A stretch of 64,000 bases of DNA, taken from the NCBI RefSeq assembly GCF_017348835.2, contig NZ_CP071375.1; one strand, written 5' to 3'. Source of the stretch: Escherichia coli. Its GTDB lineage: Bacteria; Pseudomonadota; Gammaproteobacteria; Enterobacterales; Enterobacteriaceae. Shown in pieces: positions 21,301 through 24,300 of this stretch. Made by a program: the position numbers. Each line of letters opens with the position of its first letter. The stretch's first letter is position 1.

Positions 21301-24300
21301 GCGACCGTGGCACGCCAGCGCCAACTCCAGCCCACCACCCAGGCAAGCGCCATGAATAGCCGCGATAACCTGAATGGGCAAAGCATGAATCTCCGCCATC
21401 AACTGTTGGCCCTGCCGCGCCAGAGCTTCCGCTTCTTGCGCCGTTTTGCAATTGCCGATCATGTTGATGTCTGCGCCAGCAATGAAGTTGTCCGGTTTAG
21501 CGGAGACAAACACCACGCCTCGCAACTCTTTGTTTTCACGGAGTTGCTTAATAATGGCGCGCACCTGCGAGGCAAACTCCGCCTTCAGGGTATTCATTTT
21601 CTCACCCGGTACGTCGATGGTGATAACGGCAATGTTGTCCAGACGAACATTAAGGGTAAACGCTGATGTCATTTCCATTATTCCGCCTCCAGAACCATTG
21701 CCGCGCCAAGCCCACCAGCAGCACAGGCGGTAACTAAACCAAATCCACCGCCGCGACGGCGAAGTTCATGCAATGTCTGGGTAATCATCCGCGCGCCGGT
21801 CGCCGCGAAGGGATGCCCGTAAGCAATCGAACCGCCAAGCACGTTAAATTTGCTATCGTCCACTTCGCCAGTGGCATGTGCACGCCCCAGTGCTTCACGA
21901 GCAAAACGTTCACTACCCAGCAACTGAATATTCGCCAGTGTCTGAGCTGCAAAGGCTTCGTGCATATCGATCAATGTCAGATCGCTCATCGTCAAACCGG
22001 CACGCTCCAGCGCCAGCGGTGTTGACCAGGCTGGACCGAGCAACATGTCCTGCCAGACATCGATAGCGGTAAATGCGTAGCTGCGCAGATATCCCAGCGG
22101 TACCAGCCCTAATTCTTTCGCCCGGGATTCAGTCATCAGGATCACCGCCGCTGCGCCATCGGTCAGCGGCGTACTGTTCGCAGCCGTTACCGTTCCGTGT
22201 TTACGATCAAACGCCGGACGCAGCTTTGCGTAATCAGCAAGCGAGGAATTACCGCGAATATTGTTGTCTTCCGCGAGCAGTTGTTTATAAGGAGGGATAA
22301 AGGCAGTCATCACCTCTTCTTTGAGTTTTCCGTCTGACCATGCCTGAGCGGCACGCTGATGCGAACGGTGCGCTAATGCATCTTGCTGTTCTCGGGTGAT
22401 GCCGTAGGTTTTCGCCATTTGCTCTGCAGTGTCGCCCATCCGCAAGCCGGTAGAATATTCTGCTACCGCAGGTGGTACGGGCATTAAGTCGCGCAAACGC
22501 AGGCGAGAGAAGAGTTTCAGACGCTGGCTCATTGTGCGGGCTTTGTTGACATCAACCAGCACGCGCGCCAGTTTTTTACTGACGCCAATTGGCAATACCG
22601 AAGAGGAATCTGCCCCACCGGCAATCCCCGCTCGGATAGTCCCCGCCATCAGGCTTTCTGCGACGTTTGCAACCGCCTGGAAACTGGTAGCGCAAGCGCG
22701 GCTGACGCTGTAAGCATCGGTATGCACATTCATTCCAGTACCGAGAACAATTTCACGCGCAATGTTGGGAGCTTCAGGCATTTGTACGACCTGACCAAAG
22801 ACCAGTTGTTCAATCACTTCGGAGGGGATCTCGCTGCGTGCCAGCAGTTCGCCTACCACCATCTTCCCTAAATCAACCGCGGGAATGCCATGAAAAGCCG
22901 TCGCCTGGCGGGCAAAAGGCGTACGTAAACCGCTAACAATGGCGATACGATCGCCCTGGCGGGTAACCAGCGGTAAAACCTGACCCATAACACTCCCCTG
23001 TAAAAAAATAAATAAAGTGGTCTGACCTGATCATAGTCTTAACCATTTTTTTACATTTAGCCAAGCGGAGAAAAGGGAAAGTGGGAGCTATGACACAGAG
23101 AGAAAAGAAGAAGAGAAAAGAAAACGCCCCTGCCAGCAACTGACAGGGGCGTACGTACCCGAGAGGAATTAACGCAGACCCAGCTGGAAGATCAGCATTT
23201 CAGCTTCGCAGGCAAAAGTGAAATCGATATCCAGGCGCACACCATCAGACTCTTCAGTGAAAGTCGGGGAGATTTTGCACGGTTCGGATTCCACGCTACG
23301 GGCTTTCTCAGTCAGTGCCGCCAGCGTTTGTTCTGCTTCTGCGCGGTTTGCAAACACGCGGCTGTAAGACGCGGTGCAGTCGGAGTTGTCCATAATGGTG
23401 CCAACATCCATACAGCAGCAAACCGGGGTTTCATCAGCACTACATTTACTCATCGTTGATTTCCTCTGTATGTGCACCCAAGGTGCCAGATAAACGTTGT
23501 GGATATTTTACGCTTCCGGAAAGTGCTGCTCCAGTTGTTAATTCTGCAAAATCGGATAAGTGACCGAAATCACACTTAAAAATGATCTAAAACAAAATTC
23601 ACCCGAATCCATGAGTGCGCCACCTCCAAATTTTGCCAGCTGGATCGCGTTTCTTAGATCATATTTGAAAAAAGATAGAAACATACTTGCAACATTCCAG
23701 CTGGTCCGACCTATACTCTCGCCACTGGTCTGATTTCTAAGATGTACCTCAGACCCTACACTTCGCGCTCCTGTTACAGCACGTAACATAGTTTGTATAA
23801 AAATAAATCATTGAGGTTATGGTCATGAGCCAGAAAACCCTGTTTACAAAGTCTGCTCTCGCAGTCGCAGTGGCACTTATCTCCACCCAGGCCTGGTCGG
23901 CAGGCTTTCAGTTAAACGAATTTTCTTCCTCTGGCCTGGGCCGGGCTTATTCAGGGGAAGGCGCAATTGCCGATGATGCAGGTAACGTCAGCCGTAACCC
24001 CGCATTGATTACCATGTTTGACCGCCCGACATTTTCTGCGGGTGCGGTTTATATTGACCCGGATGTAGATATTTCTGGGCGTTCCGATTTAACGGGCCAG
24101 CGTGCTGATGCAGATAATATTGCACCAACTGCGTGGGTGCCTAACCTACATTTCGTAGCACCTATTAACGATCAGTTTGGTTGGGGGGCTTCTATTACCT
24201 CGAACTATGGTCTGGCCACGGAATTTAATGATAACTACGCTGCTGGAATCTATGGCGGTAAAACCGATCTGCAGACGATCAACCTTAACCTTAGCGGAGC

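Follow-up and report, generated by a model that had tools for sequence, protein, structure and literature searches.

Three FadR operators at the fadIJ and fadL promoters flank yfcZ in Escherichia coli

Three FadR operators, one at the fadIJ promoter and two at the fadL promoter, lie on either side of the small gene yfcZ in a 64,000-base stretch of Escherichia coli DNA (the whole of which is called the window here, and whose numbering is used throughout). They very probably serve these two promoters, with yfcZ placed between them in a geometric sense and most likely under no direct control by FadR. The finding is real and was correctly read, and it is already known: these are textbook FadR operators, unchanged in the window. 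The initial annotation of this DNA had assigned FadR operators to the fadI and fadL promoters and had called this routine regulation, a reading that is borne out by near-identity with K-12, by published repression and by the identity of published EMSA probes with the window. It had also spoken of a pair of operators, whereas three FadR boxes are present; the one overlooked is the second fadL operator, O2 (23723–23739).

Results

The locus and its equivalence to K-12

The 64-kb window is part of the E. coli core chromosome. Of 5426 complete E. coli genomes, 5425 carried a match of at least 95% identity to a 1-kb query across the flagged region, and strain PE164 was 100% identical to it. Only a single base separates the two non-coding spacers next to yfcZ from those of K-12 MG1655, and the K-12 literature therefore transfers directly to this strain (a window position plus 2,437,481 gives the position in NC_000913.3).

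Three genes lie on the minus strand: fadJ (19534–21678), the second gene of the fadIJ operon; fadI (21678–22988), which encodes 3-ketoacyl-CoA thiolase and comes first in that operon; and yfcZ (23169–23453), whose 94-residue product belongs to the DUF406 (YfcZ/YiiS) family and has no known function. On the plus strand, fadL spans 23825–25165, with an older start codon at 23819. The list of open reading frames agrees with the initial gene calls for fadI, yfcZ and fadL, as does RefSeq annotation for both K-12 and the identical strain; fadJ is likewise taken from the reading-frame list and annotation. The YfcZ protein matched Pfam PF04175 with an E value of 1e-36, and its sole relative with a solved structure is the paralogue YiiS (2k3i). 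The interval 22989–23824 corresponds exactly to yfcZ and its two flanking non-coding spacers, and an Rfam scan of 18000–28000 at a permissive E-value returned nothing relevant, placing no known small RNA or riboswitch in the spacers.

Scanning reference genomes with YfcZ yielded 80 Enterobacteriaceae loci and spacer alignments of 78 to 81 sequences. The gene order, in which fadL diverges from yfcZ and yfcZ is followed by fadI, was kept in all 78 loci that were long enough to judge. Indels were confined to the two 5' UTRs, and the 240-bp core that runs from the yfcZ -10 hexamer through O2 was invariant in length, despite a 32-bp stretch within it (23598–23629) that is poorly conserved in sequence.

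Placement, score and conservation of the FadR boxes

Could the matches be chance hits of a short palindrome? Counting alone would allow it. The exact motif TGGTCNGACC, with nine specified bases, had just two occurrences across the 64,000 bases of the window, at 23018–23027 (TGGTCTGACC) and 23702–23711 (TGGTCCGACC), against a chance expectation of 0.42; two or more matches were found in 11 of 100 shuffles, so that such a number is not improbable, and with two mismatches allowed the motif was about as frequent as background (145 matches against 132 expected). The number of cores is thus not significant by itself, and it is their placement that is informative: both exact cores fall inside the 551 bp of non-coding DNA among fadI, yfcZ and fadL, for which uniform placement gives a probability of roughly (551/64000)^2, or ~7e-5. 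Because neither the core count nor the two-mismatch count was informative, we relied on a position weight matrix and on conservation.

The symmetrised FadR matrix was built from nine sites, with those of fadI and fadL kept out. Published EMSA probes or SELEX tables supplied six (fadBA, fadD (two), fabA, fabB and fadE), and the other three were each the one dominant hit in the fadH, fadM and iclR promoters of K-12 (16–18.5 bits, with runners-up at 5 or below). Among 63,984 positions in the window, the fadI box at 23015–23031 ranked first with 18.2 bits, followed by the fabB activator box at 4130–4146 (16.0 bits; a training member of the matrix, 19 kb from the fad sites), by fadL O1 at 23699–23715 in third place (11.4 bits) and by fadL O2 at 23723–23739 in nineteenth (7.0 bits). 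Within 22989–23824 the top three hits were the fadI box, O1 and O2, and the next reached 3.4 bits. Relative to the consensus aaCTGGTCnGACC(T/A)Gtt, the fadI box has 2 mismatches, O1 has 3 and O2 has 5; known sites have 2 to 7, with leave-one-out scores of 2.5 to 19.3 bits, and O2 is weak, yet inside the range of known FadR sites.

The initial annotation had named a matrix threshold as the check on its sites. Over 64 kb, the null maximum had a mean of 12.9 bits and a 95th percentile of 15.8 bits, which the fadI box exceeds; fadL O1 is borderline on this scale, though it is experimentally bound. By matrix score O1 and O2 are not significant genome-wide, and their status comes from published binding and conservation. 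A plain score threshold would have wrongly discarded both of these experimentally proven sites. The earlier site ranges did contain both cores, and the 17-bp register shifts their coordinates by 1–2 bp.

Across the 78 to 81 aligned spacers the half-sites of all three boxes are invariant, and only the central N and the two outer positions vary. Mean conservation of the fadI box was 0.99 in 78 Enterobacteriaceae spacers, making it the most conserved of 164 17-column windows in its spacer. The corresponding value was 0.89 for O1, whose core is invariant in about 79–81 of 81 species and whose variable columns are positions 1, 2 and the central N, and 0.96 for O2. The boxes are thus near-invariant between genera whereas the adjoining spacer DNA drifts, both exact matches fall within promoters that FadR is known to target, no other position in the window scores as high as the fadI box, and O1 and O2 have been bound experimentally. 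We consider chance occurrence scarcely credible, and conservation together with published binding rules it out.

The fadIJ promoter

The FadR operator of the fadIJ promoter, AAGTGGTCTGACCTGAT, occupies 23015–23031, 27–43 bp upstream of the fadI ATG, and is identified by the matrix, by conservation and by the literature. A putative core promoter lies beside it on the minus strand (23036–23064), with a -35 hexamer TTGGCT (23064 to 23059) and a -10 hexamer TAAGAC (23041 to 23036) separated by a 17-bp spacer; the two hexamers have conservation values of 0.99 and 0.94. An alternative -10 hexamer, TATGAT, can be read from 23035 to 23030. According to a recent review, FadR directly represses fadIJ from a site that overlaps the transcription start, and induction depends on FadR (PMC9329746). 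From the conserved hexamers, the sigma70 peak described below and this statement in the review we infer a fadI start near 23029, relative to which the operator would extend from about -2 to +15.

The K-12 fadIJ (yfcYX) operator is identical in sequence, and is again one strong box, set between promoter and fadI ATG and over the predicted start. We found no difference between the two, and the exact start in K-12 is known from genome-wide mapping only. The primary work on binding of this box by FadR, known to us through the review, is reportedly that of Campbell et al. 2003.

Upstream of fadIJ, a CRP-like box (TGGGAGCTATGACACA, 23082–23097) has 2 mismatches in its 10 core positions and a conservation of 0.86. 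Its centre at 23089.5 lies at about -60.5 from the putative start. The review reports a CRP site in the fadIJ promoter (PMC9329746), and this box is probably that site.

The fadL promoter and its two operators

The published fadL start lies 95 bp upstream of the older ATG at 23819 (PMC3460868), which places it at 23724 in the window, 7 nt past TATACT. The core promoter on the plus strand (23687–23724) thus comprises a -35 hexamer TTGCAA (23687–23692) and the -10 hexamer TATACT (23712–23717), both of them 100% conserved. Operator O1, AGCTGGTCCGACCTATA, extends from -25 to -9 (23699–23715) and overlaps the -10 hexamer; the weaker O2, CACTGGTCTGATTTCTA, extends from -1 to +16 (23723–23739) and begins 24 bp downstream of O1, a spacing that is exact in all 78 species in which both were found.

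Two published EMSA probes, fadL-FadR1 and fadL-FadR2, have exactly the sequence of window positions 23689–23723 and 23716–23750. FadR bound the O1 and O2 probes with similar affinity and was released by oleoyl-CoA (PMC3460868). Derepression and FadR-dependent induction of fadL, as of fadIJ, are likewise published, and the review describes direct repression by FadR from sites over the start, with further inputs from ArcA, CRP, four OmpR footprints and the small RNA RybB (PMC9329746). In K-12 the two tandem fadL operators were footprinted, and they were gel-shifted by Feng & Cronan 2012 (PMC3460868). The two-site layout (-25 to -9 and -1 to +16) and a CRP site near -157 are shared with K-12, and the regulatory sequence is identical in the window; what differs in this strain is the coding body of fadL, which is a divergent allele.

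Boxes of the same TGGTCnGACC-type palindrome have been reported for PdhR and LldR, GntR regulators of the FadR subfamily, by genomic SELEX (PMC7660256, PMC10272880), and the LldR set includes O1 and O2 as LldR boxes, with 11/14 and 9/14 matches. Recognition by PdhR and LldR is in-vitro cross-recognition with modest in-vivo effects, whereas FadR is the established physiological regulator.

Farther upstream, a CRP box (AGTGACCGAAATCACA, 23559–23574) has 1 mismatch in its 10 core positions and a conservation of 0.94. Its centre at 23566.5 lies at -157.5 from the fadL start, matching the position of the published fadL CRP site, which is "centred 157 bp upstream", was verified by EMSA and was called atypical by its authors (PMC3460868). 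In CRP genomic SELEX, fadL is the only target given. In all 78 of 78 species, 134.5 bp separate this CRP box from O1.

The yfcZ promoter, its terminator and the response to oxygen

An intrinsic terminator of yfcZ (23124–23152, minus strand, read from 23152 to 23124) lies between the gene and the fadI promoter. Its stem is 13 bp long, 9 of the pairs being G-C, and leads into a U-rich tail; the RNA folds at -27.6 kcal/mol (z = -5.3), with none of 200 shuffles as stable. A second terminator-like hit, read from 23617 to 23600, sits in the least conserved stretch (0.46), and we judged it to be due to chance.

A putative yfcZ -10 hexamer, TAAAAT, reads from 23510 to 23505 on the minus strand, with a weak -35 element around 23528–23534. 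The hexamer is 100% conserved in 81 spacers and the adjoining 17-bp spacer scores only 0.46; this combination of an invariant TAAAAT beside poorly conserved DNA fits a -10 element and would place the yfcZ start near 23498. Seen from there, O1 and O2 lie about 201–241 bp upstream and the fadI box lies beyond the terminator. None of the eight best matrix hits in the interval (the lowest at -0.46 bits) falls in 23454–23620, which leaves the yfcZ promoter with no nearby FadR-like box among them.

Published ChIP data give yfcZ an oxygen response opposite to that of its neighbours. In the sigma70 ChIP-seq of Myers et al. 2013 (sigma70 and FNR peaks converted via a 1978-bp version offset), a peak at ~23489 labelled yfcZ/fadL rises from 59.7 under aerobic to 303.4 under anaerobic conditions, whereas the fadI peak at ~23060 falls from 114 to 8 and the fadL peak at ~23765 from 150 to 5. 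The same study reports an FNR peak by ChIP-seq/ChIP-chip in the yfcZ/fadL spacer, for which its authors estimated yfcZ as the target, and it saw no FNR-dependent change in expression under its conditions (Myers et al. 2013). In E. coli O157, yfcZ and the FNR-type genes yfiD, ackA, pflB and hyp go up together when oxygen turns limiting, yfcZ by 3-fold.

The FNR peak may belong to the best FNR-like box, at 23582–23595 (minus-strand TTGTTTTAGATCAT), which has 2 mismatches in 10 positions and lies 22 bp from the centre of the CRP box. The AT block around it is 0.96 conserved, and the 22-bp spacing to the CRP box holds in 75 of 75 species with the box; the motif is not rare, with 52 window matches at 2 mismatches or fewer.

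Discussion

We envision a simple division of labour at this locus. In the absence of long-chain acyl-CoA, a FadR dimer would occupy the 17-bp palindromes, the single strong box at fadIJ covering the transcription start and, at fadL, O1 covering the -10 hexamer and O2 the start region to +16. Boxes occupied over the -10 hexamer and the start would exclude RNA polymerase. Once fatty acids are imported and activated, acyl-CoA would free FadR and both promoters would fire, with additional control exerted by CRP, ArcA, OmpR and RybB. In this scheme yfcZ would be transcribed from its own promoter and would end at its own strong terminator.

The initial annotation had drawn attention to yfcZ because two fad promoters bracket it. 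That description holds as geometry, and the gene's position most likely reflects gene order, not shared control by FadR. The gene might nonetheless be a hidden member of the fatty-acid response, either because FadR, LldR or PdhR at O1/O2 modulates it or because the fadI operator acts as a roadblock to read-through from yfcZ into fadIJ. All 78 complete Enterobacteriaceae loci keep yfcZ between fadIJ and fadL, which speaks for such a role, as do the co-orientation of yfcZ with fadIJ and the length-invariant 240-bp core, which suggests one integrated control region. So does the behaviour of yfcZ mRNA: the LldR genomic-SELEX study reported activation of yfcZ along with fadL by LldR, which binds the O1 and O2 boxes, and another SELEX study saw yfcZ and fadL mRNAs both drop ~3-fold on nitrogen depletion, a change ascribed to repression by the RpoN holoenzyme. 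As yfcZ moved with fadL in two studies, some coupling via the common spacer is conceivable. Yet FadR represses by occluding the -10 hexamer and the start (PMC9329746), and O1 and O2 lie about 201–241 bp upstream of the putative yfcZ start. A regulatory link is further opposed by the strong terminator ahead of the fadI promoter, by a promoter of the gene's own with no FadR-like box near it, and by a sigma70 oxygen response opposite to that of both fad promoters. We therefore regard membership of yfcZ in the fatty-acid response as unlikely, and we favour three operators serving fadIJ and fadL, with FadR probably having no effect on yfcZ.

A different kind of coupling is somewhat easier to imagine, although we still lean against it. 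The yfcZ–fadL spacer might form one rigid bidirectional module in which the CRP box serves mainly, or also, to drive yfcZ, which would then be a CRP/FNR-controlled anaerobic gene among aerobic, FadR-repressed fad genes. The CRP box lies at about -69 to -71 from the putative yfcZ start, a class-I-like distance, and the FNR-like box at about -91. The yfcZ -10 hexamer and the centre of the CRP box are 61.5 bp apart in 75 of 78 species. As a test of which gene owns the CRP box, indels were non-discriminating, because its distances to yfcZ and to fadL are both invariant.

As a discovery, the operators themselves carry little weight, since those of fadL and fadIJ had already been described. The analysis does offer a correction, in that fadL carries two operators. 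It also supplies a clean positive control for motif calls, in that all three operators were picked up although none had gone into the matrix, and the fabB activator site was picked up as well. It leaves a small, testable question about the CRP site of the yfcZ–fadL spacer, which may act at the promoter of yfcZ, at that of fadL or at both. For yfcZ, still uncharacterised, the lesson is that it should not be presumed responsive to fatty acids on the strength of its neighbours; published ChIP data point instead to anaerobic, FNR-associated expression.

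FadR sites and related regulators in the window

Beyond the operators of fadIJ and fadL, the window holds the box through which FadR is known to activate fabB. It reads GGCTGATCGGACTTGTT on the minus strand and lies at 4130-4146, 67-83 bp ahead of the fabB start codon (an ATG at about 4063). The window therefore carries three FadR-controlled promoters, those of fabB, fadIJ and fadL, within ~20 kb.

Other members of the FadR subfamily may recognize the fadI and fadL operators in vitro, as published genomic SELEX of PdhR and LldR suggests (PMC7660256 and PMC10272880). The PdhR peak at fadI/yfcZ was assigned to a weak box, cAgcGGTaaaACCtgac, which matches at 7/14 positions and falls within the fadI coding start (22968-22984), ~50 bp from the FadR box at 23015-23031. 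By our own count, this FadR box fits the PdhR consensus AATTGGTnnnACCAATT better, at 10/14 versus 7/14. For LldR, the boxes named in the SELEX study are the fadL operators themselves, O1 (23699-23715) and O2 (23723-23739).

The yfcZ-fadL spacer and YfcZ

The core of the yfcZ-fadL spacer, ~240 bp from the predicted yfcZ -10 element to the end of O2 (23505-23739), is invariant in length across ~78 enterobacterial species. This invariance extends over 32 bp (23598-23629) with little sequence conservation (0.46), which suggests that spacing or phasing, rather than sequence, is what is constrained here.

YfcZ itself (DUF406; gene 23169-23453) has an N-terminus rich in cysteine (C4, C12-C13-C14 and C26), with further cysteines at C58 and C81. 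Together with the reported induction of yfcZ under oxygen limitation, this N-terminus hints that the role of the protein involves a metal or redox chemistry. The yfcZ mRNA is also a standard substrate of the 5'-pyrophosphohydrolase RppH.

Variable DNA around a conserved control region

According to the annotation of E. coli PE164, the stretch at ~29050-35800, downstream of tRNA-Arg, carries a DUF4942 fragment followed by csc genes for sucrose utilisation that an IS3 transposase interrupts, along with truncated kinase and dsdX pseudogenes; it is rearranged accessory DNA adjoining the conserved fad locus. The K-12 yfdF position is occupied by a 357-aa ORF annotated as hypothetical (25532-26605), low in GC, rich in Asp, Ile and Asn and containing a DIDIDIDI repeat; a Pfam search with it gave no match.

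fadL (23825-25165) is a mosaic with a breakpoint near 24060-24070. Its promoter, its 5' UTR and the opening ~81 codons do not differ from K-12, whereas the remainder of the protein represents a divergent allele; overall there are 349/454 identities, and the loops contain indels. Among 5425 complete E. coli genomes, only 74 match the DNA at 24060-25165 with 95% identity or more, while 1137 match it at 80-90% and 4214 at 60-80%. All 5425 reach 95% or more across the regulatory region. On these counts, a single conserved control region is common to at least three deep fadL allele classes. Because FadL is the receptor of phage T2, diversifying selection or allelic exchange is a plausible source of this divergence.
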